Positions 32,120 through 59,607 of a DNA stretch of 64,000 nucleotides are shown piece after piece. Each line of letters starts with the position of its first letter. The first letter of the stretch is position 1. Position numbers and translations under genes: made by a program. This stretch comes from Centroscyllium fabricii (Eukaryota), in assembly GCA_051313645.2 (NCBI GenBank), contig JBNRSN020000008.1, positions 236,964,001-237,028,000 on the forward strand, in the 5' to 3' direction. The notes below the pieces were generated by a model. It ran no database searches and had not been told where the DNA came from. It worked only from the letters and a program-made list of their open reading frames with translations.

Positions 32120-33778
32120 CGCCTATTTTCACCTCCATAACCTCGCCCGTCTCCACCCTTGCCTCAGCTCATCCGCTGCTGAAACCCTCATCCATGCCTT
32201 TGTTACCTCTAGACTTGACTATTCCAACTTGAGGTGATCCAAAACTCAGCTGCCCGTGTCCTAACTCGCACCAATCCCTTTCACCCATCACCCCTGTACT
32301 CGCAGACCTACATTGGCAGCGCCTCAATTTCAAAATTCTCATCCATGTTTTCAAATCCCTCCATGGCCTTGCCCCTCCCTATCTCTGTAATCTCCTCCAG
32401 CCCCACAAATCCCCCCGAGATATCTGCGCTCCTCTAATTATGCCTCTTGAGCATCCCTGATTATAATCGCTCCACGATTGGTGGCCGTGCCTTCTGTTGC
32501 CTCGGCCCTAAGCTCTGGAATTCCCTGCCTAAACCTCTCTGCCTCGCTCCCTATCTTTCCTCCTTTAAGACCTGCAAAAGGACATAGATAGGCTAAGTGA
32601 GTGGGCAGAGATTTGGCAGATGGAGTATAATACTGGAAAATGTGAAGTTATGCACTTTGGCAGGAAAAATAATAGAGCGAGTTATTATCTACATGGAAAG
32701 GAACTGGAAAGTACTTCAGTGCAAAGGGATCTGGGGGTCCTGGTGCAGGAAACACAAAAAGTTAATATGCAGGTGCAGCAGGTGGTAAGGAAGGCCAACG
32801 GAATGTTGGCTTTTATTGCGAAGGGGATTGAGTATAAAAGCAGGGAGGTCTTGCTGCAGTTGTACAGGGTATTGGTGAGACCACACCTGGAATACTGCGT
32901 GCAGTTCTGGTATCCATATTTAAGAAAGGACATACTTGCTCTCGAGGCAGTGCAGAGAAGGTTCACTAGGTTAATTCCGGGGATGAGGGGGCTAACATAT
33001 GACGAGAGGCTGAGTAGATTGGGCCTCTACTCATTGGAGTTCAGAAGAATGAGAGGCGATCTTATTGAAACATATAAGATTGTGAAAGGGCTTGATCGGG
33101 TGGATGCGGTGAGGATGTTCCCAATGGTGGGTGAAACTAGGACTAGGGGGCATAATTTTAAAATAAGGGGCTGCCATTTCAAAACTGAGATGAGGAGAAA
33201 CTTCTTCACTGGTGGGGCTGTGGAATTTGCTGCCCCAGAGAGCTGTGGAAGCTACTACGTTGAATAAATTTAAAACTGAGATAGGCAGTTTCCTGGAATT
33301 AAAGAGAATTAGGGGTTATGGTGAGCGGGCAGGTAAGTGGACGTGAGGCTAGGTTCAGATCGGCCATGTGATCTCCTGGACCAGTTTTCGATCGCCTAGA
33401 TGGGTCGGAGAGGAATTTTCCTGATTTCTTTTCTCCCAAATTGGCCACTGGGTTTTTTATCTGGTTTTTCGCCTCTCCCAGGTGATCACATGGGTCTGGG
33501 CGGGATGGAGAGTAAAAATAAAATTGAGGTTAGGATCAGATCAGCCATGATCTTGTTGAATGGCGGAGCAGGCTCGAGGGGCCGATTGGCCTACTCCTGC
33601 TCCTATTTCTTATGTTCTTATGTTAAAACCTCCCTCTTTGATCAAGATTTTGATCACCTGCCCTAATTTCTCCCTATGTTGCTCGGTGTCAAATGTTTTA
33701 TCTTTAATAATCCTGTGCAATGACTTTGGACATTTTACTACGTTAAAGGCGCTATATAAAAACAAGTTGTTGTTGTTC
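32120..33778 (+). mobile_element. L2 LINE 3' fragment interrupted by a CR1
   Basis: LIHAFVTSRLDY, IQNSAARVL and LWNSLP motifs; resumes at ~33624 with tail GCTATATAAA...GTTGTTG. Confidence 0.75.
32571..33621 (+). mobile_element. CR1 3' fragment with an extended, structured 3'UTR
   Basis: ORF 32620-33267 is a CR1 RT C-terminus; same 3'UTR as 39185-39500 (minus). Confidence 0.9.
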
Positions 33779-34601
33779 AACTTTTCCTTTGCAGAGATAT
33801 TAGTGAGTAATACATGTTTTGTTGTTCTCTTCTCTTGTTTGTCCTTTTCAAAATTGTTTATTTGGATGTTGAACCTGGGGAGTTTTGAATCGCAAACCAT
33901 GTCAGGTTTGATCATATTCTGCTCACTCGTATCCAGAGATACTGTGACTTTTCTTATTGCTGTCTCCTGAATGGTTTCCTCATATTTCATTTCGGATTGC
34001 AATGAAGTACATACAGTTCATAATAGATAGATTTTCTACCTCTGCTAGAGTAAACTCAGGCATTGCTATTTTCAAAGGTCTTTTTTATGTGAAAAATACA
34101 TTTAACAGAACTACTTTATCACTATATAATAATTTATACTCTGAAAATGCATGATGAAAATCTAGTGAAGACGAGACTTAGCCCTGGATTAATTTTTTGT
34201 TCCTCTCCCCATAAGCATGTCATATAGATACTCTGTGCAAGACAAATACAAAGACCAGAAAAATACATCAAAACACTCAAGTAGGAAACCATCATTCAAA
34301 GACTGACAACTGCCACACCAAAGGGGAATATTCTGCCTTTCTTGGTTGCGATCTGCATACCACAGATACCATTATCCACAGTAGGATTTCATAAAGAGAA
34401 AGAAGAGCCCATTGGTCTTGTTGGATCACAAAACACATGTCTATGAACCAAAGCTTGAATCCATCCAGTCTCTAAGTACATTAACCAAAGTTGTAGGGCT
34501 ACAACATTAGGAACAATGCTTACAGGATGAGTAGTTTCAGTCATCGAGACATATTATAAGGGTATATGTAACATTTTAAATGGCTGCTGGGATAACTTGG
34601 C

Positions 34602-36502
34602 TGTAGGATTTGCGAAATTTCCTGCTTTTCCCAGCCCTTGTAAAGAAAACTTGCAGTAAAATGGACACATTATAAATGGAGTCTGGGATCACATGACCAC
34701 AACTAAAAGCTAGTCATTTCTCCCCAGCAACAGAGCTAGACGCAGCTTGTTGTTTCAATCATGAATGTACTCACAGCTGCAGACAAGAGCATTGAATATG
34801 CATGCGAGGGCTGGCCAGCAGGCTCCCTAAAACAAAAGACACTTAATGGGATAATGATCAGCATTTATTTTGGGCAAAACATCAAAACAAGTCACTTCTA
34901 TTCAATCACAGACATACCAGTGTTCAGGTACAGAGCACACAAAGCCAGGCCATAAATAAGGCCATTAGTAGGAAATTGACCATTTTAACGACGTTTTACA
35001 TTAAGCACCAACTTTTGTTACACAGTAGCCCACCAAAAATTAAACAAAAGACTGACCTGATTTGGCGCCAAGATAAGGGCAATGCTCAAAGAATATAACA
35101 CAGGAATGAAGTCAAAAAGCAAGAATGAATGCCTGAGACGCAGGTGGGCAACCGAAGAAGGTTGGTGCTCCTATCCATGCGCAGGCACGACCCCTGGTCC
35201 GTACTGTAGTCTGCACTTTTCCCTGGCCATCGCCCGTGCCATACCATGAGGCCGGGACCCAACTGGGGCCAGGTACTAAGCAGGAACAGTGAAAACACCT
35301 CAGTACGGACCGGAGCAAGAGTAGGCCTTGCCTAAAAAACGGGAGTGACGGATTTGTCGCTCCAAACTGGTTTTGGACCACGAGAATTTTAAAGTCAATA
35401 AGCCGGCATCTGAAACGGGCCCCCAGCATTTATTCACCAGAAGAAGTTCCATCAGCTTGGAAGAAGAAGATCCATCACCTCAGCAGCCGTGAGACCACGA
35501 GGTGTCCATCCCTGAGGGACGAGAAGTTGCGTGGCACGTACGCGCTGCAGCCCTGCTGACCACATAAGGACGGAACACCTGAAAGACCAGAGCCAAAACT
35601 CAAAACCTTGTTTTTATTAATCCCAGGCTGGTGAGCATGAATTCTGACCCTTGGTAGTTGACCTATGATAGGTATAGGTATAGCGGGGGTGGGAGTTAAG
35701 TTTAAGTGATTGCTAAAACTCATTTATATCACTCGATGTGCCGTGCGCTTCCCAAACCTGTACCAATGTATAACGATTGAATTGTTTTTACCTGTAGTGT
35801 GCTATCAATAATTTTCTTCTTAATAAAACCTTTAAGTTTGTTTGACTCACTCAAGTCGTTTGTCTACCTGTGTTATTGCACCATTAGGGGAGGCGGTGGC
35901 GTAGTGGTTATGTCACTAGACTAGTAAGCCAGAGGCTCAGTCAAATGCTCTGAGGATATGGGTTCAAATCCCACCATGGCAGCTGGTGGAATTTAAATTC
36001 AGTTCAATTTAATTCTGGAATTAAATGTTAGTCTAGTAATGGCGACCATGATGCCATTGTCGATTGTTGCAAAAACCCATCTGGTTCACTAATGTCCTTT
36101 AGGGAAGGAAATCTGCCATCCTTACCTGGTCTGGCCTACATGTGACTCCAGACCCACAGCAATGTGGTTGACTCTTAATGTCCTCTGAAATGGCCTAGTA
36201 AGCCACTCAGTTGTAAACAACCGCTACGCAACATTGTGGGTGTACGTACACCATATGGACTGCAGCGGTTCAAGAAGGCAGCTCACCACCATCTTCTCAA
36301 GGGCAATTAGGGATGGGCACTAAATGCAGGCCTAGCCAGCCAGCGATGCCCACATCCCATCAACGAATAAAAAAAAAAATCAGTGGTCTGGCAATAAGCC
36401 CAGTGTCCAGAATCAGGAGGGGGAGTGGGAGCGCTTCGAAACCGCTCACGGGCAGGTACGAGCCAAATCGACCTCGCACACCACCCAGCCGAACCCCGTA
36501 CA
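34602..36502 (+). repeat. 5' LTR (~1.4 kb plus a SINE insertion)
   Basis: Direct repeat of 50167-52212; AATAAA at ~35822; TG...CA ends. Confidence 0.92.
35888..36378 (+). mobile_element. tRNA/CORE-type SINE inserted in the 5' LTR
   Basis: Absent from the 3' LTR; tRNA head, poly(A) tail, approximate TSD ATTAG/ATCAG. Confidence 0.85.
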
Positions 36503-36506
36503 GAAA

Positions 36507-36524
36507 TGACGACCACGGCAGGAC
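36507..36524 (+). other. Primer-binding site, tRNA-Arg(TCG)-like
   Basis: TGACGACCACGGCAGGAC just after the LTR, 2 mismatches from the recalled tRNA-Arg(TCG) 3' complement TGGCGACCGCGGCAGGAC. Confidence 0.7.
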
Positions 36525-36554
36525 ACTGGCCACAGGCCTCTGGTGTGGTAGACA

Positions 36555-38287
36555 ATGGCTCAGGGGTGTCAAATGTTATGGAAGAGAGGATTTCAGATTA
36601 TGTGTTCAGTAAGGTGAATCTGACTAAGAAGTGGATTACCGCTCTGTTAAAGGCTGGGCACCCAGTAGACGCTGCAGCTAAGTAGACAGAGGGGAAGGAG
36701 CATAAGAAATCTCTCGAAAAGGCCGTGTGGCTGTGTTGTTATAAGAAGCAGCTCCAGCTTCTAGATGGGCTCCAAGCAGCGAGGTTAAAGGAGCTAGACC
36801 TGGAGGTTCAGGAGAAAGCTCTAGCGGAAGAAAAGTTAGTGATGGCGCTACAGACCCTCAGTCAGGAGAGGGTACAGTTAATAGGGGAGCATAAGGCCCA
36901 ATTGGAGTACCTGCAGTGCCAAGTCACCGAGGCTAAAGGGCATGAGTTTAGGTTACGGGATAAAAGTGCCCGCCTGACAAGGGAAGTCAGGGAACACGAT
37001 GAGAAAGTAAGGGAAGTACAGGCCCGCGAGCAGGGGTTTGAGGATACAGATCACAGATCCTGTCTGGAAAAGATAGAGAAACTGAGCTGGGCCCTCCGGA
37101 AGGCAAAAGGCATGGTATGTCTCGTAAGCCCAAAGGCAGGTCAGGCAGATTTCTTGGGGAATGAGGGTAGGGCCCTTCCAGTGGCCCAAGTAGTGTTGAG
37201 GGACGACCCAGTAGTAAGGGAGGAAACCCTACATCCACCACCCACTATGCCAAGCTTCGGCAAAGTGTGGCACAAAGGGGAGGTGGAAGTGGAGGTGGTG
37301 CGAGCCCCGGAGAGGTCGGGAGCATGGCCCATGTGCCCGGCCCGGCTGCAGAGGCTGGGACCAGCCATTGGTGGTGACCTAGAGGGACCGCTCCAAAACC
37401 AGTTCATAGTGCCTTACAACACGCAGCAGCTGAGGAGTATGGTCAGCCATATCCTGAAGCTATCCCAAAAGGGAGACCCCTCGGTCCATTTCAGGGAGAT
37501 AGAGCAGGCAGCCAGCGTCAATGACTGCGATGACGCTGAACAGGCCAAAATGCTGCTATTCTCCCTGGAGAGCAGCCTCCGCCAGGCCCTCTCTGATGGG
37601 AATAAAAGAGGGCAGAGTGGGTACGAGGAGCTGATAAAGCCATGGTAGAAGCCCTGGGGATGGATGAGGGAAGTCCCTTCTCCCGCGTGGAGAAGACGGT
37701 CCAGCTAACAGGGGAAACTCCGCAGGCATTTGCGGACTGGCCGTGGCCGGTGTACCGGAGAGCTTTTCCAGGGATGCCCAACTGGGCACTCCTGCACGGG
37801 GACATCCTGGCTCACTGGCTCCGTTGCTTGGTGGCGAACAGCCTACCACAAGACCGAGCGAAAGCGGAGGCATGGTTCGACCGCAAGGACCCCAGCAACA
37901 CCGAAGCCGCGGTGATCAGGCAGCTAACTCTGGCCTATAAGAACGGTCGGGGAGCCGAGGCAACCCAGCCAAAGGGAAGGTGCATGAGGCAAGGCCCGGA
38001 CCGGGTAGGAAAGAGTGGCGCCAGGAAGGGACTAATTCTCCCCACCCAAATTGAACTGCTATGGGTGTGGGAAGGATGGCCACTGGCAGAAAGAGTGCAG
38101 GAATCCGTGGAAGGATTCAAGGGGAAAGACTCCCACAGCCCCAGCCCAGCCGGAGGGGGCAGGAGTCCGGTCCACCCAGGTCGAGATACTTTTGGACACC
38201 ATGAGGTCCATATTGTCTGGCCAGGGAAAGGTAGCAATGGCTACCGGCACTCTAATGCCGTCAGCCCCCACCAACCCCCAGCCCTGA
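36555..38287 (+). pseudogene. gag: gag (coiled coil, capsid-like region, CCHC zinc knuckle), disrupted
   Basis: ORFs 36425-36685, 36725-37648, 37642-~37980 and 38051-38287 (CYGCGKDGHWQKEC); ends TGA-CTAG. Confidence 0.8.
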
Positions 38288-39184
38288 CTAGAACAGGCTG
38301 ACTTGCTTGCCATGGAGGGTGCCCGCGCCGGCACTTTTTGGGACCCATTCAGGTCCAGACCTGTGGCAGCGGTCAGAGGTAGGGATGGGACCCAAGTTAG
38401 CGTAGGGGTAGCTTTAACCCCAGACCTTAAGTCCATCCAGGCACAGGACCCGGTCCTGAAAGCTGTTCTCAGCACAGGATAGTAGAGGAACCATATGGTA
38501 CAGCGACCCTCTCTGTAAAAGAGGGCATGCTGTTCAGTGGGGTGGGGGGGGGGGGGGGGCAGTGGGTTGTGCTGCAACCGCACTGGAGGGAATTCCTTCA
38601 GCTGGCCCATGAGGGTCCAGGAGCGGGACACCCCGGGCCTGAGACCACCTGGCAGTGGGTAGAACAGGCGGGATGGTGGCCGGGACTCAGGGAGGACATC
38701 CGCGAGTTCTGTGCAGGCTGTCTCATGTGTGCTGCAAATAACCCTGACCCCCGTAAAAGGAAGGTACCAATGGGACATGTCAGGAGGGTAGAGAGACCAT
38801 GGCAGTCGATCCAGGTCGACTACATTGGGCCCCTACCCACCGCCCAGGGAGGCTTTAAGTCCTGATGGACGTGTTCTCGAAATGGGTAGAAGCCTTCCCC
38901 TGCAAAACTGCCACAGCTCCGGGACTGCGAGGATCCTAGTCCAGGAGGTGCTCTCACGGTGGGGACTGCCACAATATGTGGAGTCGGACCAGGGGAGTCA
39001 CTTTACCGGGCAGGTAATGCAGACTGCCCTTATGCTGCTGGGCATTGAGGGGAAGTGGCATGCAGCTCACAACCCACAGTCATTGGGGATTGTGGAGCGC
39101 ATGAACCGTACCCTAAAGGAATGGTTGAGGAAGGAGACGGTGGACTCACCCCGTAAATGGGCCGAGATCCTACCGTTAGTGTTA
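38288..39184 (+). pseudogene. RNase H C-terminal remnant plus integrase N-terminal and core region
   Basis: EQADLLAMEGA; HHCC finger AHEGPGAGHPG...WWPGL...CLMC; PWQSIQVDYIGPLP; SDQGSHF; GIVERMNRTLK. Confidence 0.85.
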
Positions 39185-42100
39185 CATAAGAAGATAAGAA
39201 CATAAGAAATAGGAACAGGAGCAGGAGTAGGCCAATCGGCCCCTCGAGCCTGCAACGCAATTCAACAAGATCATGGCTGATCTGATCCTAACCTCAAATC
39301 TACTTTCACTCTCCATCCCGCCCGAACCCATGTGATCACCCGGGAGAGGCGAAAAACCAGACAAAAACCCATTGGCCAATTTGGGAGAAATAATCTGGGA
39401 AATTCCTCTCCGACCCATCTGGGCGATCGAAACTTGTCCAGGAGATCACATGGCCGATCTGAACCTAGCCTCATGTCCACTTACCTGCCCGCTCACCGCA
39501 ACCCCTAAATCCCTTTACTTCCAAGAAACTGTCAATCTCGGTTTTAAATTTATTCAAAGTAGTAGCTTCCACAGCTCTCTGGGGCAGCAAATTCCACAGA
39601 CCTACCACCCTCTAAGTGAAGAAGTTTCTTCTCATCTCAGTTTTGAAAGGGCAGCCCCTTATTCTCAGATTATGCCCCCTAGTTCTAGACTCACCCATCA
39701 GTGGAAACAACCTCACCGCATCCACCCTATCAAGCCCCTTCACAATCTTACATGTTTTGATAAGATCACCTCTCACTCTTCTGAACTCCAATGAGTAGAG
39801 GCCCAATCTACTCAACCTTTCCTCATCTCCGGAATCAACCGAGTGAATCTTCTCTGAGCTGCCTCGAGAGCAAGTGTATCCTTTCTCAAATATGGAAACC
39901 AAAACTGTACGCAGTATTCTAGATGTGGCCTCACCAATACCCTGTATAACTGCAGCAGGACTTCCCTGTTTTTATACTTCATCCCCCTTGCAATAAAGTC
40001 CAAGATTCTATTGGCCTTCCGGATTACCTGCTGTACCTGTATACCAACCTTCTGTGTTTCATGCACCATGACTCCTGTAACGAAATCTGTTGTCTGTATA
40101 TATTCGTTTTGCACTCATGTATATTGTCCTCCCCCACTGTGTATAGTTTCACTTCCTATTTCCTGACTAAACCTGGGAGATTCCAGGAATTGGCTTTGGC
40201 TCTGCCCCTGGCTCCGCTTACATAAAGAACCCAGTTCCTGTGTGACTCATTCCTGTGAGGCAGCCGACCCATCGAGATGTGAGCTCTAATTCTTAGTGAT
40301 TAAAAGCCTATCTGTTTAAGTCTATAACTTCTAGTTTTGCAGTTATTGAAGGCACATCAATTTTAATCACTATGAATACTAGGATGGATTGACTCCTAAA
40401 ACCAGAACATCTTAACTTGGATCCACATTCTGGTGAAGCATCAAATCAATTTGGACACTGGCTCAGATGCTTCAAACTCTTCACGGAGGCCGCATCCGCT
40501 AGCGAGACAGAGAAACTGAGTCTACTGACTACTCGCATAAGTCATCGGACTTATTCGCTCATCCGGGACGCTGCCTCTTACACGGAGGCCATTGCTAGCC
40601 TGAAGGCCCAATACCAGAGGCCGGTAAACGAAGTGTATGCCAGACATCTGCTGGCTACACGCAGGCAGCGACCAGAGGAATCAACGGATGACTTTCTACA
40701 GGTCCTAAAGGACCTGGTCCGGGACTGTAACTGCAAGGACGTGATGGCCAACGTGTACTCTGACGAATTGGTCCGCGATTCCTTCATCGCAGGCCTCAAA
40801 TCAAATTATATCCGGCAGAGACTGCTGGAGCAGGAGGCCCTGGATTTAAAAGGGGCAGTGGCCACTGCACGATCGCTGGACGTGGCCCAGAAAATCTCTG
40901 ACTCCTATTCTTCCGGCCATGCGGCCCTCACCGCCTCGTGCACGCCGAGGGGGCCGCCTTCTTGGAATCAGCCACCTTCCCCACCCAGGTCTCAGGCTAG
41001 CTCTACGTCGCCGGAGTCCCCACACAGAAATCTACCCAGGAGTCCTACTACAGCATTAACATCTCGAGGCCCGAAATGCTACTTCTGCGGCCAGGGCAAG
41101 CATCCCAGACAATGTTGCCCAGCGAAGGACGCTACATGCTTCAAATGTAAGGAAAAGGGGCATTTTAGCAAAGTCTGCAGGGGGAATCCGATTTCCAACT
41201 CCGTCACTGCCTTGTGCGTGCCGTGCGTGCCACCATTTTGGGATTGGCTAGCTTGCCTCGACTCAACGGTCGCCCAGGGCCCAACAGTGGCTTCGATCAC
41301 GGTGGATCAATCCAGGCCACACCCGTTGACAAAATCCATGATGGACATACAGGTAAACGGGAACTTAACGAAATGTTTATTTGACTGTGGGAGTACTGAG
41401 AGCTTTATCCACCCTAGCCTGGTATGTCACCACTCATTAACGGTAACCCCCACACGGACCAAAATTGCTATGGCTCCTAAGCCCCACACTTCGGACATTT
41501 CGGGCTACTGTGTGGTAACTCTGACTGTAAGAGGCACGGACTACAAGGATTTTAAACTCCTCGTGATGCCAGAACTCTGTGTTAATGTAATCTTGGGCCT
41601 GGACTTCCAGTGCCACCACGAAAGTGTCACACTAGCATATGGCGGGTCCCAGCCACCACTCACAGTCTGTGGCCTATCAACCTTAAAAATCAGCCTGCCC
41701 TCTTTATTTGCAAATCTCGCCCCAAACTGTAGGCCCATAGTGACCAAAAGTAGACAGTACAGCCTGGAAGACAGACACTTCATCAAGGCAGAAGTGGACA
41801 GACTCCTGCGGGAAGGCCTTATTGAATGCAGTACCAGCCCGTGGCGGGCCCAAGTAGTCATAGTTAAAAATAGCGAAAAGAAAAGGATGGTAATCGACTA
41901 CAGCCAGACTGTTAATATTTATACCCAGCTGGACGCCTACCTTTTACCCCGCATATCAGAAATGGTCAACCAGATTGCACAATACCGAGTCTTCTCGACT
42001 ATTGACCTCAAATCCGCGTATCACCAGCTCCCCATTAGAACGGAGGACTGCCCATACACTGCCTTTGAGGCGAACGGGCAGCTCTACCATTTTCTCAGAG

Positions 42101-42786
42101 TGCCCGTCGGGGTAACAAACGGGGTCTCGGTTTTCCAATGCGAGATGGCCCGCATGGTTGACAAGAATAAACTGCAAGCTACCTACCCCTATCTGGACAA
42201 TGTCACTATCTGCAGGCACAACCAGCGAGACCACGATCTAAATCTAGCGAGATTTTAAAAAACTGCCCAAAGGTAAATCTAACCTACAACGAGGACAAAT
42301 GTGTCTACAACACAACCAGTCTCTGTATCCTCAGCTGCGTGGTGGAAAGTGGGGTAATTGGGCCAGACCCTGACCGATTACGCCCCCTAAAGGAACTGCC
42401 CCTGCCACACAATCACAGAGCCTTAAAAAGGTGCCTGGGATTTTTTTCGTATTATGCTCAATGGTGCCCAATTTCTCCGACAAGGCCCGACCCCTCATTA
42501 AATCGACGTCCTTCCCACTATCAGCTGAAGCTTGGGCAGCCTTCACCAGTATTAATCAGGATATTGAAAAGGCTGCAATGTGTGCAGTGGATGAAAGCAT
42601 TCCCTTCCAAGTCGAAAGCGATGCGTCAGACTTCGCCTTAGCCGCGACCCTCAATCAGGCTGGAAGACCTGTGGCCTTCTTCTCCCGAACCCTTCAAGGA
42701 CCTGAAATCAGGCACTCTTCTGTAGGGAAGGAGGCACAGTCTATAGTGGAGGCAGTGCGGCACTTGAGACACTACCTCGCCTGGTA

Positions 42787-43183
42787 GTAGGAAGACATGG
42801 TAGCGCAGTGGTTAGCACTGCTGCCTCGCAATAAGGAGCTCCTGGGTTCGAATCCTGCTTGGCCCAGGACCTCTCTGCGTGGAGTTTACATGTTCTCCCC
42901 GTGTTCATGTGGGTTTCCTCCGGGTACTCCGGTTTCCTCCCACCACCCAAAGACGTGCAGGTTAGGTGAATTGGAGATACTAAAAAAATTGCCCATGAGT
43001 ATGTGTGTGAGATATAGTTCTTAGAGTTGGGGGTGTCAGGGGGGATATAGTTCTTAGAGTGGGGGGTGTCAGGAGGATATGGGGGGTGCTGGGTTGGGAT
43101 GATCAGCTATGATCTCATCAAAATGGCGGAGCAGGCTCAAAGGGCCGAATGGCCTACTTCTGCTCCTACCTTCTGTGTTTCTG
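42787..43183 (+). mobile_element. tRNA-derived V-SINE variant inserted in Gypsy A RNase H
   Basis: GCGCAGTGGTTAGCACTG...GGTTCGAATCC head, CR1 tail, TSD TGGTA. Confidence 0.85.
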
Positions 43184-43314
43184 TGGTAAACGTTTCACCC
43201 TGCTCACCGACCAGCGGTCGGTGGCTTTCATGTTTAATAACAAACAAAGGGGGAAAATCAAGAACGACAAAATACTCAGGTGGAGAATCGAACTATCCAC
43301 GTTCGACTATGATA

Positions 43315-43875
43315 CAGGTTGAGCACCAGTAATCCAGCACGAGCGGGACCAGGCCCGTGCCGGGAAAGTGAAAAAAACGGCAGAATGAATTCGGTCAGTG
43401 CGCATGCGCGCACCATTCAAAATGGCCGCACGCATGCGCACAACTTTGGAAATGGCCGCCGAACGTCCGTGCTGAGTATCAGCTGCGGTTTGTGCCTCCT
43501 GATGACGGCCTGCAGGCTGCTTCGGGAAACCGCACGCTTCACCATGGCGGGCGCTCGGGACTCGCACATTCAAAACGCGGCGCGAGCCGTCGCGCCCTGA
43601 CGCCACAAAAGGCCCGGCTCGTCCGGCGGCCGTTTTTAATGATCTGCGCATGCGCTCGCCGTCCGGCGGCGCATGCGCAGATCATTCAAAACATCCGGCA
43701 GCCATTCTGAATGATCTGCGCATGCGCTCGCCGTTCGATGGCGCATGCGCAGATCAGTCGCCGAAGCCTCGATCGCGGCTGCCATTTTGCGCATGCGCAG
43801 GGCAGTCGGGGCAATTTATACTGGACCACTGAAGTTGTCGGCATTTCGGGGAACGGATTACTGGTGCTCAACCTG
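43315..43875. mobile_element. MITE family 1 inserted in Gypsy A
   Basis: TA|CAGGTTGAGCACCAGTAATCC ... GGATTACTGGTGCTCAACCTG|TA; removal restores FDYDIMYRPG. Confidence 0.92.
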
Positions 43876-46184
43876 TATTATGTACAGGCCGGGAGCCCTT
43901 AATGAACCCCCAGACACCCTATTGCGGGGAATGTGTGCCAGCATTCACACGGACAAATTACAGGGACTCCACGATGACCTCTGTCACCCAGGGGTCACCC
44001 GATTATTCCATTTTATAAAGTCCCGCAATCTGCCCCACTCCATCGAGGATGTCAGAGCAATGACCAGAGCCTGTCGCATCTGTGCAGAATGCAAGCCTTG
44101 TTTCTACAGGCCTGACCATGCACACCTTATCAAAGCCACATGGCCATTCGAGTGCCTAAGTTTGGACTTCAAGGGGCCCCTTCCCTCTGCTGACCGTAAC
44201 GTATACTTCCTCAATATCATTGATGAATATTCTCGCTTCCCCTTCGCCATTCCATGCCCAGACATGACCAGTGCCATGGTCATCACGTGTCTCGGTAATC
44301 TATTCTGCATGTTTGGTATGCCGAACTACATACACAGCAATAGGGGGACGTCCTTCATGAGTGACAAGCTGCACCAGTTCTTGCTCTCGAAAGGAATAGC
44401 CACTAGCAGAACCAGTAGCTGCAATCCTCGGGGGAATGGGCAAATGGAAAGAGAGAATGCAACTGTCTGGAAGGCTGTCACGTTAGCCTTAAAGTCAAAA
44501 GGTCTTTCGACCTCCTGCTGGCAGGAAGTCCTCCCAGACGTGCTCCACTCCATAAGGTTGCTGTTATGTACTGCCACCAACGCTACCCCCCACGAAAAGA
44601 TTTTTGTTTTCCCCAGGAAATCCACCTCGGCATATCTCTGCCCGTGTGGCTGATGTCTCCGGGGACAGTACTATTGCGGAAGCACGTGAGAGGCCATAAA
44701 ATGAACCCCTTGTGGAAAAGGTACAGCTCCTCCATGCAAACCCTCAGTACGCCTACATTGAGTACTCTGATGGGCGAGAGGACACTGTTTCCATAAAGGA
44801 CCTCGCTCCCTCGGGGAGCGGAGAGAACGATGGGAGACTACCCGATGAAGGCCAACATTACAAAGAGACAAGTCTACCCGACGAAGGCCTACATTACAAA
44901 GAGACAGGATACCTGGAGGTGTCAATACCCAACTTTAACCTGGGGGGCATTGTAGATGACCTGGAAGACACTGCGGAGGCCCGGACAGCGGAGGAACCAG
45001 AATCCACTCACCTAGAGCCACCCCAACCGGCTTTGTGCCGATCACTGAGAACTGCAAAACCTCCTGACAGACTCACTTATAACAACTTTTACTAAACACC
45101 AACCCGATGGACTAAATCTATAGAAGGGGTGAATGTAATGAAATCTGTTGTCTGTATATATTTGTTTTGCACTCATGTATATTGTCCTCCCCCACTGTGT
45201 ATAGTTTCACTTCCTATTTCCTGACTAAACCTGGGAGATTCCAGGAATTGGCTTTGGCTCCGCCCCTGGCTCCGCTTACATAAACAACCCAGTTTCTGTA
45301 TGACTCATTCCTGTGAGGCAGCCGGCCCATCGAGATGTGAGCTCTAATTCTTAGTGATTAAAAGCCTATCTGTTTAAGTCTATAACTTCTAGCTTTGTAG
45401 TTATTGAAGGCACATCAACCCCCAGATCACTTTGCACTTTAGAACTTTGAAGTTTCTCTCCATTCAGATAATAATCTGCTCCCTGATTTTTTTTGCCAAA
45501 GTGCATAACCTCACACTTTCCAACATTATATTCCATCTGCCAAATCTTTGCCCACTCACCGAACCTGTCTCTGTCCCTTTGCAGGTTTTTTATGTCCTCC
45601 TCACTCACTGCTTTCCCTCCCATCTTAGTATTGTCGGCAAACTTGGATACGTTGCACTCGGTCCCTTCTTCCAAATCGTTATTATAGATTGTAAAGAGTT
45701 GGGGTCCCAGCACTGCCCCCTGCGGAACACCACTAGTCACTGATTGCCAATCCGAGAATGAACCATTTATCCCAACACTCTGTTTTCTGTTAGATAGCCA
45801 ATCTTCCACCCATGCCAGTATATTACCCCCAATCCTGTGATTTGTTATCTTGTGCAGCAATCTTTTGTGTGGCACCTTGTCAAATGCCTTTTGGAAGTCC
45901 AAATACACCACATCCACTGGTTTCCCTTTATCCACCCTGTTTGTTACGTCCTCAAAGAATTCAAGCAAATTTGTCAAACATGACTTCCCCTTCGTAAAAC
46001 CATGCTGACTCTGTCCGATTAAATTATGCTTATCCAAATGTCCTGTTACTGCTTCCTTAATAATGGACTCCAACATTTTACCAACCACAGATGTTAGGCT
46101 AGCCGGTCTATAGTTTCCAGCCTTTTGTCTGTCTCCCTTTTTAAATAAGGGCGTTACTTTAGCAGTTTTCCAATCCGCTGGGGA

Positions 46185-47293
46185 TTGTTAATGGGGATCC
46201 GGGCCAGCCAGTCCAAGAGTACGGGGTATTCCCCGTATGAGTTAATGACTGGTAGGGTTATGCGGACCCCCACCCATGTGCTAGCGCTGCTGCTTACGGA
46301 GGGGCAACTCTGGGAGGTCAACCGGGACAGGTTCGCCCGAAACCTTTATGAGCACCTAAAGCAGGTCTATGGGTAGGCAGCTGGGAACATGGGGAGGCAG
46401 CATCGGAGAAACCGATTGCTGCTGGAGCCAAAAGGGCACCAAGAATGGGAGGTGGGAGACCAGGTCATGGTTAGAAACTATGCCCGAGTAGGGAGTTTGG
46501 AACCCTTGTACATGGGGCCCTACAGCATTGTAGATAAGGCCAGCCCCATGGTGTCCGCCGTGAAAATGACCCAGCGTACAAAGTGGTTCTATGTCAACCA
46601 GTGCAAGCTGTTCAAGCCAGGCAAGGCTAAACAGCTCACTGGTCAGGGGAGTGAGGGTAGAGATCCTCAGCCCGACGCTACGGTTCCTGTGATGTGCTTG
46701 AAGGGAGGGGCCACCCCACTGGTAAAGTGGGACACTCCTCCAACTTGGTGGGAGCTAGATAGTGGGGAGGAATCAGAGAGCATATTTCCGCCCTTGGCTC
46801 TGTCACAGTGGAGGGGCAAACCGAGGGCAGTAGCTCCACCCTCAGCTCAGATGCAGAAGGGGAGGGACCCGAGGATAGGAACCCTGCCCCTAGCTCTAGT
46901 GAGGAGAAGGAGGGACCTGAGGTCAAAGAGCCCGCCCCGGACCCTGTTGTGGGACCAGGGGGCGGAGACTCTCAGGTCACAGCCACAAGCTGCAGCGGGT
47001 CACGTGTCACAAACCTGAAGGTAGGGGGAGCAGGACTGAAGGGAGCAGCGGCCCAGGTTAAGAGGTCGCTGGCCAAGAAAGCCCAACCCGTCCTCAGGAG
47101 ATCCTCTCACACGCCCAAGCCCAAGAAGGTATGGTCACCCGTCAGGTATGTGACCAGGACAGTTCCCCGCATAAGGGGAATGGTAAAAGGCAGAGGCCCC
47201 CAGCCAGCAGCCACGGGCAGCGAAGTGGCCACAGGCAAGGACAGTGTGGCCGCGCCAGAGGCAGTGGCGAGCCGCAGTCCAACCAGGGATTAG
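46185..47293 (+). pseudogene. Integrase C-terminus (GPY/F motif) with a long low-complexity extension
   Basis: STGYSPYELMTGR; VGDQVMVR...LEPLYMGPYSIV; Ser/Glu/Pro-rich extension ending in an LRRS-type basic motif. Confidence 0.8.
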
Positions 47294-47522
47294 CCTGGCC
47301 ACTCGGAGACAGGCGGCGAATTGTATATAGTTTAGGTTTTTAAGTTTAGTGTTAAGGTTTGTGTTAAAGTTAAGTAAGGTAGTTTAAGTTAAGAAATAAG
47401 TTGTTCCAAGGGACAAGTTTTGGGTTCGAGGTCGAGGGACCCAACCACACTTCACCCAAGCCAGAGAATCTCTGGGAGACCTGGCTGCATGCATGTTCTT
47501 CTTTGGTCTGTTACAGGAAGGA

Positions 47523-49817
47523 ATGGGGATGAGAAGATTCGTGATCCTGCTCACCCTAGTCGGGATCAGCGCCGGGAAGCGGGGTGATGTGGAGGATTCA
47601 CATGTTTTCGGGTGCTCGGGAGAGAGAGCTCCCGTGGTGATTGGCGGAAGCAAGGAGCGAGGCCCAGAGGGACCTGCCATCTACGCCCACGAGGGGAGAT
47701 GGCCTGGGTGGGTGGGATCGAACTCCACCCGGTACTCCAGTCAGCCCGGATTCACTTACGGGGAGGCTTCCCTCCTCTGCCCCACAGTAAAGGTTGTGGC
47801 TTCACGCATCGGAGTCGTAGTGGGAAAGCATGTGTGCCCACTAACAGATGGTGGTGGATTCGGAAACTGAGGGCGGACATCCAACATCAACATGAGTAGA
47901 GATGGATAACGACACCCACAGGACGGTCACGACGACCATGAACAGTACTAGTGTGTGTTGGGACAAATGGTGGGAATCCGAGCAAGGGATTTATGTATGT
48001 ATGTGGGGGTCAAAGAAGGTCTGCCCTACAGGTTTTTCCGTTGTTTTCTCTGCCGCCTGGCAGGACCAGGGAAAAGGGATTAATTGGGACGCCCACCTCC
48101 ACACATGTGTAGAACTCGACAAAGTAGCCCCAGTTAGAGCAACTGAACTTGTGGCGCATACCCACAAGCCCCTGCCTACGACTCAGCCCACTGGGAGGCC
48201 CCGGGAATGGTGCCCCGCCACCACCAGGGGACCTGGGCATGGATTGGTACTAGTACCCACGGATCAGGTACTGTACCAGGGTGTACACTACGCGGTGGCC
48301 TCGGTGATCCTGAATTTAACCGAGGTGCATTTGCCAAAGTGGTGCCCCAGGGAGTCAGAGCAGTTATACCAGGCCCTCTTAAAGGACATGTTTAGGCACT
48401 TTTACAAGTTCAATTTATCCAGCGGGAATCGGACTGCACTTTACACCACACCACGCGAAGTTTTGGGTGGGACAGGGAGACAAAGAAGGGGCATTTTGGG
48501 TGGTGCATTCACCGCGTTTAATACTGGGACCTCTGTCGTCAACACGCTGGATGATATAGAGCTGCAGACCCTGATTAACAGTTTAAAAATGCAGTTAAAG
48601 GCGATTCTCATGGATGAGAACAAAGTAGTAAGTTCGGAGTTGCATGTGGACCAGGCAATGACGGTCCATTTAGAAGAGATAATAGCGCAGTTGGAGAAGC
48701 ATGCCAAAACGGTAAATGCTCTCATATGGGAGGACAGAAACGCGCCTGACCAGGCGGTGCAGAATGAGGCGTGTGTACTGTACGGGGCATGGTTACTGGG
48801 CAAGGGCTGCAGTAATCCGGAGGACCTGAAACAGGGTTTGGTCCGCTCCTGGATCAGTAACAAACACCTCGCCGCCCTCCTCCCATATGAGAACGCATTG
48901 AGCCCGTGCCAGCTCCAACTAGCCTCCGAAGCTTATCCAGTTCCCGTGGACTGTGGTCGGTCAAACCACGCAGTCAAGGGGGTGGTTGTTCGGATGCGGG
49001 TTATGGGAAGGGCAGCCCGATCCGCACTGGTGTACAGGATGGAGAACATTAGAGTGATCCAAGGGGGTGCGCACATTCGTTTCGCAGCGGTCCCACCTTA
49101 CGTCATCAAGTGGGAGCACGAAATGACAGGCACGGACCTTGCAGGGTGCCGGAGCTGGGGAGCACACATAATCCTGTGTCCCCAGCACTTGAATGCCTTT
49201 TTAAGACCGCAGTGTGGGTTCAGAGCTGCTGGAGCAAAGCCTATAAATTGCACCATGGAGGCGATGGCACACAGCCACTTTCCGCCTCAGGTGGCATATA
49301 TAGGTTATGGGACCTACTGTGTCACCACCTGGTGTGCGGTGAGTCACAGCAGCTTCTGTTTTAAACCCGAGTCTGAAGTTCAAGTGGCCAGGAGTGAATT
49401 GTCCCCATCCCGGAGCCCTCCACTGTCCACCTCACTGTTCAAGAGAATGTAACCAGTTTGTTGCAGTTTGTAGCCCATTTCAGCTACAAGATTCCCCCTC
49501 TCCCTGAACACCTCACAAAACTCCTCAAAGCCGTTGTTGTTTTGCAGAAACACTTCTATACCTTGGAACAAAAGACGATAGAAATAGGGTCTAAAATCTT
49601 AGACATAGTAGTTCCACCATGGTGGGACCTCTTCGATAGCATTGAAGTCCCATCATGGATCCGGCTGGCTTCCCACATCCTGGTGGTATGCCAGCTCAGC
49701 ATCGTGCTGTACTTAGTCTGTGTACAGTGTAGGGGGAAGGGTCGGTTCTCAGAGTTCCGAAACTACACAACCTGGCAGGGGCACTATGAGGAAGCAGAAG
49801 GATATACACCCGTGTAA
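47523..49817 (+). pseudogene. env: env-like class I fusion glycoprotein, frameshifted
   Basis: Splice acceptor TTCTTCTTTGGTCTGTTACAG (ends 47516); signal peptide MRRFVILLTLVGISA; furin site RQRR (48478-48489) then fusion peptide GILGGAFTAFNTG; heptad repeat; Cys-rich domain; TM LASHILVVCQLSIVLYLVCV. Confidence 0.85.
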
Positions 49818-50166
49818 ACCCTCCCCGTTTTGGAATGTTTTTTGTAATATAGTTTTGCTTATGTGTTTGTTGTTTTTAATAAAGAATTTGTGCACGGTTT
49901 TAATAAAGATTTTATATGTACCAAGTGGTGCAGGGGTGTTGGACCCCCTCCATGCTTGGATGTATGTGTATTGAATTTCTTTTAAGTATCCTTGTGTGCA
50001 CTATGCTCTCGCGGATTGGGAAGTACGTGTTTCGCAGCATATTTTTAGGATAGATTAATCACAGGGGATGGTTGACTGGGAGGGGCCAAAAATTATTGCT
50101 CACCAGAAACAACAATAATGATACTTAATTATCATCTGAAAAATTATTAATTATCACAGGGGGGAC

Positions 50167-52212
50167 TGTAGGATTCACAAAGTTTCCTGCTTTTCCCAGC
50201 CCTTGTAAAGAAAACTTGCAGTAAAATGGACACATTTTTAAATGGACAAAATGGAGTCTGGGATCACATGACCACAGCTAATAACTAGTCATTTCTCCCC
50301 AGCAACAGAGCTAGGTGCAGCTTGTTTTTTCAATCGTGAATGTACTCACAGCTGCAGACAAGAGCATTGAATATGCATGGGAGGCCGGCTAAAACAAAAG
50401 ACACTTAATGGGATAACGATCAGCATTTATTTTGGGCAAAACATCAAAACAAGTCACTTCTATTCAACCACAGACATACCAGTGTTCAGGTACAGAGCAC
50501 ACAAAGCCAGGCCATAGATAAGGCCATTAGTAGGAAATCGACCATTTTAAAGTCGTTTTACATTAAGCACCAACTTTTGTTACACAGTAGCCCACCAAAA
50601 ATTAAACAAAAGACAGACGTGATTTGGCGCCAAGATAAGGGCACTGCTCAAAGAATATAACACAGGAATGAAGTCAAAAAGCAAGAATGAACGCCTGAGA
50701 CGCAGGTGGGCAACCGAAGAAGGTTGATGCTCCGGTCCGTGCGCAGGCACGAACCCCGGTCCATGCTGTAGTCCGCACTTTTCCCTGGCCATCGCTCATG
50801 CCATACCACGAGGGCGGGACCCAACTGGGGCCAGGTACTAAGCGGGAACAGTGAAAACACCTCAGTATGGACCGGAGCAAGAGTAGGCCTTGCCTAAGAA
50901 ACGGGAGTGACGGATTTGTCGCTCCAAACTGGTTTCGGACCACGAGAATTTTAAAGTCAATAAGCCGGCTTCTGGGTTGACCTTCGAATAAACGGGCCCT
51001 CAGCATTCATTCACCAGAAGAAGTTCCATCAGTTTGGAAGAAGAAGAAGGTCCATCACCTCAGCAGCTGTGAGACCACGAGGCGTCCAGCCCTGATGGGG
51101 CTGTCACACCTTGACGTTTTAGCCAGCGTATGCAAATTTGGCGAAAACGCTGGTACACGTCGAATACGTTATGGGTAAGTTTTGTATACGTTAAGAGCAC
51201 GCTGGCATACGCTGGCATACGCTGGCATACGTCGTTGTACTTCGAGTAAGTCGAGAAATTTTGAGCATGCACAAAATTTCTCGACGTACCCAGCGTATGA
51301 CTCACACGTCCTCATACGCTGGCCATAAGTTGTAGGCATGTTAGGCACGTTAGGCGATCGTTGACACACGTCGACACACGTTACTTGTAAGTTAGTCATA
51401 AGTCAAAATACGTCGAGATAATGTCTAGCCACGTGATCGTCGGCGAAACGCTGCCGCGCGCTATGCATAAGTTAGACTATCGTTGGGCATAACTTGTGAA
51501 CGCCGACAACACGCTAAGCATTCGTTGGTATAAGTTATCTGTAACTTATCGAAACGTTCTGTGTACGTTACTAATACGTATGCATACGTCCAACTCGTTA
51601 TGAATACGCTATTATACGCCCAAAAACTGAAAAAAAACACAGCGAACGCCAGCGTTTTAGATAAATTTGCATACGTCGGCATGCGCTAGCTAATTCGTCA
51701 AGGTGTGACAGGGCCTTGAGGGACGAGAAGTTGCGTGGCACGTACGCACTGCAGCCCTGCTGACCACGTGAGGACAGAACGCCTGAAAGACCAGAGCCAA
51801 GACTCAAAACCTTGTTTATATTAATCCCAGGTTGGTGAGCATGAATTCTGACCCTTGGTAGTTGACCTAAGATAGGTATAGGTATAGCGGGGGTGGGAGT
51901 TAAGGTTAAGGGATTGCTAAAACTGTTATTTATATCCCTCGATGTGTCGTGCACTTCCCAAACATGTACCAATGTATAACAATTGAATTGTTTTTACCTT
52001 TGGTGTGCTATTACTAATTTTCATCTCAATAAAACCTTTAAGTTTGTTTGACTCACTCAAGTCGTTTGTCTACCTGTGTTCTTGCACCATCAGTGGTCTG
52101 GCAATAAGCCCAGTGTCCAGAATCAGGAGGGGGAGTGGGAGCGCTTCAAAACCGCTTACGGGCAGGTACGGGCCAAACCGACCTCTCACACCACCCACCC
52201 AAATCCCCTACA
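50167..52212 (+). repeat. 3' LTR (with a MITE insertion), preceded by PPT CAGGGGGGAC
   Basis: Direct repeat of 34602-36502. Confidence 0.92.
51096..51716. mobile_element. PIF/Harbinger-like MITE in the 3' LTR
   Basis: TIR core CTGTCACACCTTGACG / CGTCAAGGTGTGACAG; 3-bp TSD TGA; empty site CCCTGAGGG in the 5' LTR. Confidence 0.9.
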
Positions 52213-53129
52213 TGGCCATGGTTAACTCTAGGTTACCCAGTATTCTCATAGCAACCCTGCTAGATTTTCAGTCTCCAGCTCCACTGATACCAAAACATCT
52301 CGGAATGTAGTGGACAAAAACAGCTTCAGTGCAGCTGGATTTCAGAGAAGATAAGGTTGATAAACAGGCCATCACTACCTTGGTTTCAAACCCTTTATCT
52401 CTCTTTGGAATGTTCACTCAACCTTAGAAGCTAGCATTGTTTATCACAGTAAGCTTTTCCCGAGAAAGTAATGAAAAGTCTGGTAGGAATCACAGTACGA
52501 GGGAGGGAACAGATAAGCCTACAGCCTTTTGCACAGACATGGAGTCTGAGATGATCTTATTCACAAGATAAGATGGACCCAGTGTCTGAAAACATAGATG
52601 TTATGTTAAATGTCCACGAACACCTCAAGGTGGTTCCCAATATTGAGTGACTAACCATGCCAACCAATAAGGTGGCAATGGTAGTGACGCTGTTTGTACG
52701 GGCCCACCCACCTTTGTAACCCAAGGGGGTGCCTATCGAAAGGTATATCTATGTTTGTATGCTGTATTTTCTTTGAGAGGATAGGTCCAAGTCTGATGAG
52801 GCTGACCTCTCTTTCCCTTGCGCACAGATCTTTCAGGATATTTGTAATAAACTTTTACTTTATATTCAATTCCGTCTCCATCTAGAGTTTCTCTTAAATT
52901 CGAATCTAACAGTCTGCTTTAGGAACGGGCACTAATGTTTTATGAAGGCATGCGGATTTCTTTCAGTGGCTAACTACTTTATTTCCGCAGTAGTCTACTA
53001 ATAGCCAGATTGAGAGGCTGGCTGCGGGCAGGTAGGCTTGCAGCCACATGGAGGGTTTGTGTGAGGGCTGGGCCATTAAATGGATCGGGGACGGTGGGGG
53101 GGCGGCGGGAGGGAGTGGCGAGGACCAAG

Positions 53130-54240
53130 GGTTGGGGACCGGAGAAAGGATTAGGGAGAAGTGGGGGCAGGAGGACCGGGGGTTCGGAGGGAAGGATCGG
53201 GAGAGGTGGGAGAATGATGACGGGAGCCAGGGGAAGGATCGGGGGCAAGTGGGGGCAGGAGGACCGGGGGCCAGGGCAAGGATCGAGGGAGGTGGGGGAA
53301 CGAGGACCAGGGGAAGGATCGAGGGAGGTGGGGGAATGAGGACAGGGGGTCAGGGGAAGGATCGGGGGAGGTGGGGGAACTAGGACCAGGGGAAGGATCG
53401 GGGGAGGTGGGGGAACGAGGACCAGGGGAACGATCGAGGGAGGTGGGGGAACGAGGACTGGGGGTCAGGGGCAGGATCGGGGGCAAGTGGGGGAATGAGG
53501 ACCAGTGGAAGGATCGAGGGAGGTGGGGGAACGAGGACCAGGGGAAGGATCGAGGGAGGTGGGGGAATGAGGACCAGGGGAAGGATCGAGGGAGGTGGGG
53601 GATCGAGGACCAGGAGCCAGGGGAAGGATCGGCGGGGAAGTGGGGGAATGAGGACTGGGGGCCATGGGAAGGATCGGGGGGAAGGGGGGAATGAGGACCG
53701 GGGGCCAGGGGAAGGATTGGGGGCAAGTGGGGGCAGGAGGACCGGGGCCAGGGCAAGGATCGGGGGAGGTGGGGGAACGAGGACCAGGGGAAGGATCAAG
53801 GGAGGTGGGGGAACGAGGACAGGGGGTCAGGGGAAGGATCGGGGGAGGTGGAGGAACTAGGACCAGGGGAAGGATCGGGGGAGGTGGGGGAATGAGGACC
53901 GGCGGCCAGGGGAAGGATCGGGGGGAATGAGGACCGGGGGCCAGGGGAAGGATTGGGGGGAAGGGGTGTAATGAAGACCGGGGGCCAGGGGAAGGATCGG
54001 GGGAAGTGGGGGAATGAGGTCCGGGGGCCAGGGGAAGGATTGGGGGGAAGGGGAGGGATCAGGAGGAAGTGGGAGAATGAGGACCAGGGGAAGGATTGGG
54101 GACCAGGGGAATGTTCGGGGGCCAGGGGAAGGATTGGGGGGAGTGGGGATCAGGAACCGGGGGAAGGATCATTGGGAGATGGGGTATTGGGGGCCAGGAG
54201 AAGGATTGGGGATCTATGCCAGGGGAAGGATCGGGGTGGG
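53130..54240 (+). repeat. G-rich minisatellite, ~35-bp unit like GGGGAAGGATCGGGGGAGGTGGGGGAACGAGGACCA
   Basis: Degenerate tandem units read directly. Confidence 0.9.
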
Positions 54241-58900: not shown

Positions 58901-59589
58901 GCCGGGCAATTCCGTCTGGGGTGCTGGGCCTGGCCGCAGAAATAGCATTTCGGGCCTTGCGAGGTTATCGCCGCGGTCAGCTCGTCCACGGGTTGCGATG
59001 CAGCTGGCTGTGTCCAAGATGGCGGCATCCGCGATGTGCCCGCATGGTCAGGGTTGTAGGCGGCCATATTATGGGACGCCAGGTCCAGCGAGCTCGCAAG
59101 CTGTACCGTCTCCTGCAGGTCCAGGCCATCCTTCTCCAACAGTCTCTGCCTGATATAGTCTGACCTGAGGCCGGCGACGTAGGTGTCTCTGATGAGGGTC
59201 TCAGCGTGCACGGCGGCCGACTGTGCTTTACAATCGCAGGCCCGGCAGAGGACTCTCAGCGCTCGCAGGAACTCCACGCTCGATTCCCCGGGTTGCTGCT
59301 TTTGGGTGGCCAGGAGGTGTCTGGCATAGACCACGTTAGGTGCCCGGGTATATTCGCTCTTCAGGGTTCTGACCGCCTCGTTGTAGGACGTAGCGTCCGC
59401 GATGATCGAGTACACCTGAGGGCCCACCCGGGCGTTGAGGAGGCGCAGTTTGTCCCTGTCCGTCCGGACGATCGCTGCGGAGGCTTCGAGGTACGCCTCA
59501 AAGCAAGAGAACCAGTGTGTAAAAGTGTTAGGGGCACCTGGCGCTTGGGGATCTAGTTCTAACGTCGCGGGTTTCAGCATTAGCTCCAT
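55952..59589 (-). pseudogene. Gypsy B gag-pol (stop at 57712, frameshift ~57480, integrase core deletion)
   Basis: ORFs 57712-59589, 57439-57711 and 55952-57565; CCHC knuckles, DSGS protease, RT, RNase H, integrase. Confidence 0.92.
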
Positions 59590-59607
59590 GATGAAAACTT
59601 AGTTATT

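Follow-up and report, generated by a model that had tools for sequence, protein, structure and literature searches.

A decayed, reverse transcriptase-deleted endogenous retrovirus copy in Centroscyllium fabricii, from a multicopy family with a predicted F-type envelope

In this study, we analysed a 64,000-nucleotide stretch of the Centroscyllium fabricii genome (the window; GenBank assembly GCA_051313645.2, contig JBNRSN020000008.1, positions 236,964,001 to 237,028,000, forward strand), which contains a provirus-like element at 34602-52212 bracketed by TGGC on each side. We believe that this element is very probably one decayed member of an endogenous retrovirus (ERV) family with many copies, that its protease, reverse transcriptase (RT) and RNase H were lost in a deletion shared with other copies, and that such copies were likely copied in trans. 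In this reading, the RT of the family is of canonical retroviral type, and its envelope protein (Env) is predicted to fold like paramyxovirus fusion (F) proteins and is nearest, among the references tested, to the Env of lokiretroviruses.

RT is absent through an internal deletion that copies have in common; this is ordinary non-autonomy and not the design of a lineage, and the family retains RT. The family's own RT is absent from the window, where a tblastn search with the protease, RT and RNase H of a relative returned only Gypsy matches at 21-27%. The original prediction of an RT-less element thus holds for this copy and fails for the family, whose full-length relatives carry RT. A search of the 7.2-Gb genome with the env core gave 7,529 candidates, 112 of which were scored. 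Family A, which contains the window copy, is decayed and approximately 79-85% identical to the query, and family B is 75-76% identical, with many open env frames, 1.65-kb long terminal repeats (LTRs) and 4-bp target-site duplications (e.g. loci L057-L070 and L101). The LTR divergence was approximately 6-7% in two family A copies and 1.2-1.8% in five family B copies. Family B copies hold approximately 2.4 kb extra between gag and integrase, which encodes protease, RT, the tether and a second RNase H. Protease, RT and RNase H were found throughout in 9 of 10 fetched family B copies and RNase H in the tenth, and the family B RT gave 150 scored genome matches at 97-100%. The 1,444-residue frame of the full-length relative L069 matched RVT_1, RT_RNaseH, RNase_H, H2C2 and rve; its dual RNase H (tether and RNase H) is deleted in the window copy, in which the approximately 2.4 kb are gone at one junction.

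All 40 scored DNA matches spanned this junction end to end, and the junction was identical in all 30 loci compared, with a 3-nt microhomology seen among the copies. Exact 21-mers of the deleted junction, the undeleted RNase H end and the controls had 43, 89 and 0 matches genome-wide, respectively. Because the exact 21-mer is present in just 17 of the 30 junction loci, 43 deleted copies is a floor. One undeleted gag-pol border of family A was also recovered. A second deletion, which removes the integrase core, is shared by 17/30 RT-deleted loci, and therefore even integrase is dispensable in cis; the identical integrase deletion in one RNase H-bearing copy fits recombination. In a tree of 235 bp, deleted and undeleted copies were intermingled and star-like, and a single clade of RT-deleted copies was neither supported nor excluded. 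The deletion of RT is commonplace in itself, yet these copies keep a clean record of stepwise non-autonomy. Near-identical env or RT matches were clustered on contigs C69, C856, C834 and C1011, which suggests that some copies were amplified in tandem or as segments.

The features of the window copy are as follows.
34598..34601, left target-site duplication TGGC, read from the sequence
34602..36502, + strand, 5' LTR, TG...CA, approximately 1.4 kb minus its insert; 90-93% identical to the 3' LTR by blastn
35891..36385, + strand, A-tailed insert in the 5' LTR, resembling a short interspersed nuclear element (SINE); missing from the 3' LTR and 80% identical to window 20009-20338
36506..38287, + strand, gag, frameshifted, with a coiled-coil-like N-terminal part, a putative capsid-like middle and a single CCHC knuckle
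36507..36524, + strand, primer-binding site for tRNA-Arg(TCG), 4 nt past the LTR, with 2 mismatches
38288..38300, + strand, deletion junction, at which the final helix of RNase H continues the reading frame of the initial pol codons
38301..39190, + strand, remainder of RNase H, then the zinc finger and core of integrase, disrupted; Pfam H2C2 and rve, 75-86% identical to the integrase of a relative
39191..40075, - strand, 3' fragment, first part, of a CR1/L2-like long interspersed nuclear element (LINE) in integrase; 86% identical to window 32734-33624
40076..45417, + strand, Ty3/Gypsy element nested in the LINE, with LTRs of 285 bp (97%) and its own protease, RT, RNase H and integrase
45418..46187, - strand, second part of the LINE fragment, matching RVT_1
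46188..47293, + strand, integrase C-terminus with GPY, followed by a low-complexity pol tail
47497..47517, + strand, putative splice acceptor of env, made up of a pyrimidine tract and TACAG; the sister family has it too
47523..49817, + strand, env, predicted F-type class I fusion protein with an RQRR site
50157..50166, + strand, polypurine tract, read from the sequence
50167..52212, + strand, 3' LTR, matched to the 5' LTR by blastn
51099..51713, 615-bp insert in the 3' LTR with terminal inverted repeats, resembling a miniature inverted-repeat transposable element (MITE)
52213..52216, right target-site duplication TGGC, read from the sequence

Once the inserts were set aside, the LTR pair could be aligned in three blocks that total 1,410 bases and are 90-93% identical (Kimura two-parameter distance approximately 6%), and together with the flanking TGGC this bears out the LTRs and target-site duplication first described. 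The insert in the 5' LTR presumably belongs with the Deu-type SINEs of sharks, and we take the 615-bp insert of the 3' LTR, which bears an apparent 3-bp TGA duplication, to be Harbinger-MITE-like. The primer site is a 2-mismatch version of TGGCGACCGCGGCAGGAC, which is intact in other copies and complementary to the 3' end of a host tRNA-Arg(TCG) gene, in agreement with the predicted tRNA-Arg-like site. ARAGORN found no tRNA gene within the window; on host contigs C811 and C922, sequences like the 3' end of tRNA-Arg(TCG) form long clusters, in which some lie approximately 1.9 kb from each other. With the two rates used in PMC4422223 and PMC7947760, in place of a rate measured for sharks, the LTR divergence would give an age of approximately 15 to 145 million years for the window copy.

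Gag, integrase and env are each broken in the window copy. The knuckle of Gag matched zf-CCHC (E = 3.7e-4), and the integrase matched H2C2 (E = 8e-16), rve below the Pfam cut-off (E = 2e-5) and, at its GPY-bearing C-terminus, MLVIN_C (E = 0.014), so the knuckle and the GPY/F integrase of the original prediction were recovered. Approximately 7 kb of foreign DNA lies within integrase (39191-46187), where the LINE fragment encloses the nested Gypsy element with its own RT; this Gypsy element itself contains SINE and inverted-repeat inserts. Its family sits in many of the retrieved proviral copies, and a second Gypsy element at window 55952-59598 (- strand) shares 72% DNA identity with it. Window gag terminates in TGA followed by CTAG. 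Of the 30 junction loci, 27 were parsable and 21 have the same stop, as does the lokiretrovirus contig L128; snakehead retrovirus (SnRV) has TAG. The UGA-CUAG context favours readthrough.

The env frame starts at an ATG at 47523, behind the putative splice acceptor, and includes RQRR and a Cys-rich block; the signal peptide and the transmembrane segment were assigned by eye. It is broken by frameshifts near 47,850-47,900 and near 49,400 and by an 11-codon gap. A regular-expression search of the window and relative Env found neither CX6CC nor a motif like the immunosuppressive domain, as had been noticed, and Pfam gave no family for Env and no direct match to PF00523. We modelled the ectodomain of a natural open frame of family B with 37 relatives (pLDDT 73.7). 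By Foldseek, the model matched human parainfluenza virus 3 F (E = 1.6e-10) and other paramyxovirus and pneumovirus F proteins. The alignment to Newcastle disease virus F had Z 11.7 and a root-mean-square deviation (rmsd) of 17.3 over 366 aligned residues, and those to foamy virus Env had Z 8.2-9.4, with an rmsd of 6.8 over 293 residues in the best-Z alignment. The best PDB match of the Env profile was also foamy Env (E = 0.0027; 8rm0/8rm1). Predicted viral structures matched as well, namely lispivirus and baculovirus F and the Env of walleye epidermal hyperplasia virus 1 (WEHV-1) and walleye dermal sarcoma virus (WDSV) (BFVD rows 17 and 36). On this basis, we predict that the family Env folds like paramyxovirus F, as the original prediction of a non-gamma, Mononegavirales-type protein anticipated; gamma Envs align to it only near the membrane segment. 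The matches to WEHV-1 and WDSV, both epsilonretroviruses, suggest in these models that among retroviruses F-type Env extends beyond lokiretroviruses and foamy viruses. Because foamy, WDSV and WEHV Env fit the same model, the F fold by itself is not diagnostic of lokiretroviruses.

In sequence, the family Env is nearest to lokiretrovirus Env among the reference viruses tested, as judged by profile comparison. HHalign of the Env profile gave 98.3% (E = 2.6e-14) for lokiretrovirus Env and 84.7% (E = 6.6e-6) for SnRV Env, and a profile of the 14 closest rows scored 38-43 bits for lokiretroviruses, 9 or less for foamy viruses, 6 for WDSV and 4 for SnRV. Named env relatives occur in sawshark, smooth-hound, bamboo shark, horn shark, skate and two frogs, the closest being skate (83%) and sawshark (65-72%). 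One frog Pol that shares the RT clade of the family has at its end a match to the N-terminus of this Env type (E = 1e-32); therefore, the combination of this RT with this Env also occurs outside the present genome. The N-terminal domain of Env (relative L101:110-800, window 47523-48200) gave immunoglobulin (Ig)-like hints (E = 0.08-0.3 for Ig_3 and, in a relative, 0.045 for V-set; the ESM Atlas gave nothing but Ig-like leads, at 0.80-0.82), and Env may carry an Ig-like receptor-binding domain. This is a lead because the fold model is of low confidence (pLDDT 34) and no similarity emerged when the N-terminus of SnRV Env was compared, the similar-looking motifs there being seen by eye only. Some shark gene models (Niban-like, cadherin-related 5 and an fbxo15 isoform) contain pieces of env, either because the annotation is chimeric or because proviral sequence has been exonised. 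The Niban exons of the host itself share 60-80% identity with those of the sawshark, which, like the env relatives in skate and sawshark, suits a cartilaginous fish as host.

The ratio of nonsynonymous to synonymous rates (dN/dS) of env was 0.08-0.11 between families. Within family A, private variants were near neutral (0.88) and shared variants were constrained (0.16-0.27). Purifying selection between families, taken with near-neutral private variants, suggests that the family spread with a working envelope and decayed afterwards.

The RT tree held 42 rows, a subset from which near-duplicates and the majority of Gypsy rows had been removed. Lokiretrovirus references were obtained by a motif scan and homologue search, and foamy, gamma, epsilon and delta references were collected separately. 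Lokiretrovirus rows were recognised by motif, by a near match to the Wang and Han supplement and by PF00523 on the L128 env; 12 of 14 metagenome pattern matches and 1 of 40 viral matches had no RT. Near-complete lokiretrovirus contigs (L123, L128) were observed in metagenome assemblies and are probably host DNA. Canonical retroviruses including this clade were supported at 100/99 with lokiretroviruses outside, and the shark elements formed one RT clade with frog and coelacanth Pol (91/98). Grouping the clade with lokiretroviruses was rejected by the approximately unbiased (AU) test (p-AU 0.0013, and 0.0036 in a second test), and a quick tree under a mixture model agreed (98). RT identity was 44% to SnRV, the nearest virus with a name, 34% to lokiretroviruses and 32-37% to foamy viruses, and the RT motifs are those of SnRV (LPQGF, QYVDD, PTVA), unlike those of lokiretroviruses (CPFGY, IYVDD). 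The sole IMG/VR match for the family RT (44%) was a 10,688-nt genome whose RT matches SnRV. These comparisons place the family, with its LTR-gag-pol-env layout and its tether and RNase H, inside canonical Retroviridae. The integrase scored 205 bits to lokiretroviruses and 117 to SnRV, and the tether 70 and 30 bits, respectively; grouping of the integrase with SnRV was rejected (p 0.018), and the top named Pol matches are annotated as NYNRIN-like. The family is best called a class-III-like, SnRV-grade lineage of sharks, frogs and coelacanth with a loki-like envelope and an integrase that is loki-like by score.

Several observations weigh against parts of this reading. The Foldseek TM-scores of the Env model were modest (0.41-0.45) and the rmsd values high. 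The Env-lokiretrovirus link derives from profiles and frog relatives: scored as a single sequence, the shark Env was weak against lokiretrovirus Env (9-11 bits), and the window's own frame scored below 0. The between-family dN/dS of 0.08-0.11 is biased downward by family B copies picked for open env frames, and the constraint on shared variants in RT-deleted copies may be the legacy of full-length ancestors or a skew from CpG decay. The RT tree is without ERV-L, alpha, beta, lenti, Odin, fish foamy-like and fish/shark FLERV rows, and within it neither a grouping with SnRV (p-AU 0.44) nor one with foamy viruses (0.22) was rejected, which leaves a polytomy within retroviruses. The integrase tree (no CGIN1 row) is a basal polytomy with lokiretroviruses, whose grouping with the family was neither supported nor rejected, and the high lokiretrovirus scores may merely mirror a low rate of evolution. 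Mobilisation by helpers, readthrough of the gag stop and splicing of env are putative.

Among the other explanations, one keeps the same non-autonomous biology and makes the family an old recombinant, an SnRV-grade backbone with env, and perhaps integrase, from a lokiretrovirus. The nearness of Env to lokiretroviruses, the integrase scores, the rejected integrase grouping with SnRV and the disagreement of RT all suit it, and domain shuffling is a pattern stated in PMC7947760. However, the loki-like traits lie in the gag stop, tether, integrase and env, so several swaps around RT would be needed, while the Envs of SnRV, WDSV, WEHV and foamy viruses are likewise F-related and this Env type is common to sharks, skate and frogs; we consider the recombinant unlikely. 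A true lokiretrovirus, the first in cartilaginous fish, with its RT misplaced by long-branch effects, draws support from the loki-like Env, integrase and tether, the TGA-CTAG stop and the NYNRIN-like Pol matches. This is very improbable and largely refuted, since the AU tests reject it, the mixture-model tree agrees with them, the RT motifs and identity are of SnRV type, and the exact lokiretrovirus RT motif pattern had 0 matches in this genome. The original label of lokiretrovirus-like is thus apt for Env and wrong as a statement of membership.

A Ty3/Gypsy retrotransposon with a captured F gene, in the manner of errantiviruses, had been the other original suggestion, and the GPY integrase tail, the fit of baculovirus F proteins to the Env model and a weak Baculo_F match of a shark Env relative (E = 0.0011) speak for it. 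It is refuted, with practically no probability left: the dual RNase H and the RT position exclude Gypsy, RT and integrase lie outside the Gypsy rows (support 100), and no members from vertebrates are reported in the errantivirus preprint. For the window copy, domestication of gag/env by the host, or replication in the absence of RT, is hardly credible. Gag-only lokiretrovirus relatives are useful to zebrafish (PMC12067270), and the deletion preserves the frame from gag to integrase; however, three genes are broken and overlaid by insertions, private variants are near neutral and helpers are abundant. Lastly, the family may be the same as CmiERV lineage I or the shark-plus-frog FLERV clade (PMC5512871).

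We therefore return to the decayed member of a helper-bearing family as the preferred explanation, for which the following course can be proposed. Reverse transcription would be primed by tRNA-Arg(TCG), and Pol would be produced via readthrough of UGA-CUAG. The deletion may have arisen by RT template switching at the 3-nt microhomology, and the deleted RNA, which presumably retained the LTRs, primer site and packaging signal, could have been co-packaged with helper RNA in the same burst and copied in trans by full-length relatives. Recombination between co-packaged RNAs would follow, and the family may have spread at least partly through infection with a furin-cleaved F-type Env. The loki-like Env, integrase and stop context would be ancestral traits that were retained, not recently borrowed. 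More tentatively, at a little under an even chance, we propose an unnamed basal lineage, with sharks, skates and frogs as hosts and probably coelacanth as well, that combines a canonical RT with an ancestral F-type Env, CGIN1-like integrase and UGA-CUAG readthrough shared with lokiretroviruses. If this were true, a single gain of an F-type envelope would predate the split of lokiretroviruses and canonical retroviruses, gamma- and beta-type Envs would be later replacements, and the preferred model of two envelope origins would be contradicted.

Other features in the window were LINE-type RT frames at 2073-4858, 8486-9265 and 14516-15721. Window 3659-4858 also matched ALKBH8_N (E = 5e-16), and the 613-residue frame at 2073-3914 had no Pfam match. 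A G+A-rich tandem array with 36- and 43-bp units lies at 53100-54200.

According to Wang and Han, lokiretroviruses were found in none of six chondrichthyan genomes (PMC7947760), which accords with the original impression that this type had not been reported from this group, and similarity between lokiretrovirus and canonical Env was undetectable, so that independent envelope gains were preferred (PMC7947760, PMC9040795). The F fold of foamy Env was already published in 2024 (PMC11468914) and had hinted at such kinship. The main interest here is Env homology at the sequence level across the divide between lokiretroviruses and canonical retroviruses, which complements that structural link: a lineage with a canonical RT and a loki-alignable Env makes the origin of the envelope testable by ordinary phylogenetics, and the pairing of canonical RT with an Env of predicted F fold would suggest that retroviruses have had envelopes of this kind for a long time. 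Our literature search, which covered neither Repbase and Dfam nor most subscription papers, gave no shark lokiretrovirus and no ERV of SnRV grade whose Env is loki-like. The elephant shark has already yielded SnRV-like ERVs (CmiERV lineage I, PMC4422223), clade Huo occurs across all vertebrates (PMC6001957), and class III dominates shark ERV RTs.

Like lokiretroviruses (PMC7947760), the family has gag-pol-env, a dual RNase H, an F-related Env with a furin site, a CGIN1/NYNRIN-like integrase by score and the TGA-CTAG gag stop of L128. Unlike them, its RT lies outside their clade with other motifs, its Gag has a CCHC knuckle, none being seen in L128 Gag, and its Env has an extra N-terminal domain of approximately 210 residues; the smc accessory gene of lokiretroviruses was not noticed in general views of open reading frames (ORFs), and no search was aimed at it. 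With SnRV and clade Huo, the family shares RT motifs, a tRNA-Arg primer site, the CCHC knuckle, an in-frame gag-pol stop and a homologous Env. SnRV differs in its TAG stop and another tRNA-Arg end; it also has accessory ORFs, and its Env tail runs to 136 residues (PMC12193657), compared with approximately 30 residues here; its integrase did not group with that of the family, and RT sisterhood is unsupported. Foamy Env has a similar F-like fold (PMC11468914), whereas its sequence match is far below that of lokiretroviruses and the family RT has no foamy RT motifs. Similarly, zebrafish BHIKHARI and chicken ENS-1 (PMC12067270) are multicopy LTR elements of retroviral families without pol functions; Bik-2 keeps gag alone, whereas gag and env, with or without integrase, are kept here alongside the full-length form. 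The crocodilian ERV4 (PMC4299795) is likewise a non-class-I/II ERV with env, and in contrast has 5-bp target-site duplications and neither zinc finger nor GPY/F, the family having 4-bp duplications and both motifs. The young family B, with env under purifying selection, suggests recent infectious activity in cartilaginous fish, and the element is best called a variant of class-III-like retroviruses that bridges to lokiretroviruses in its Env.

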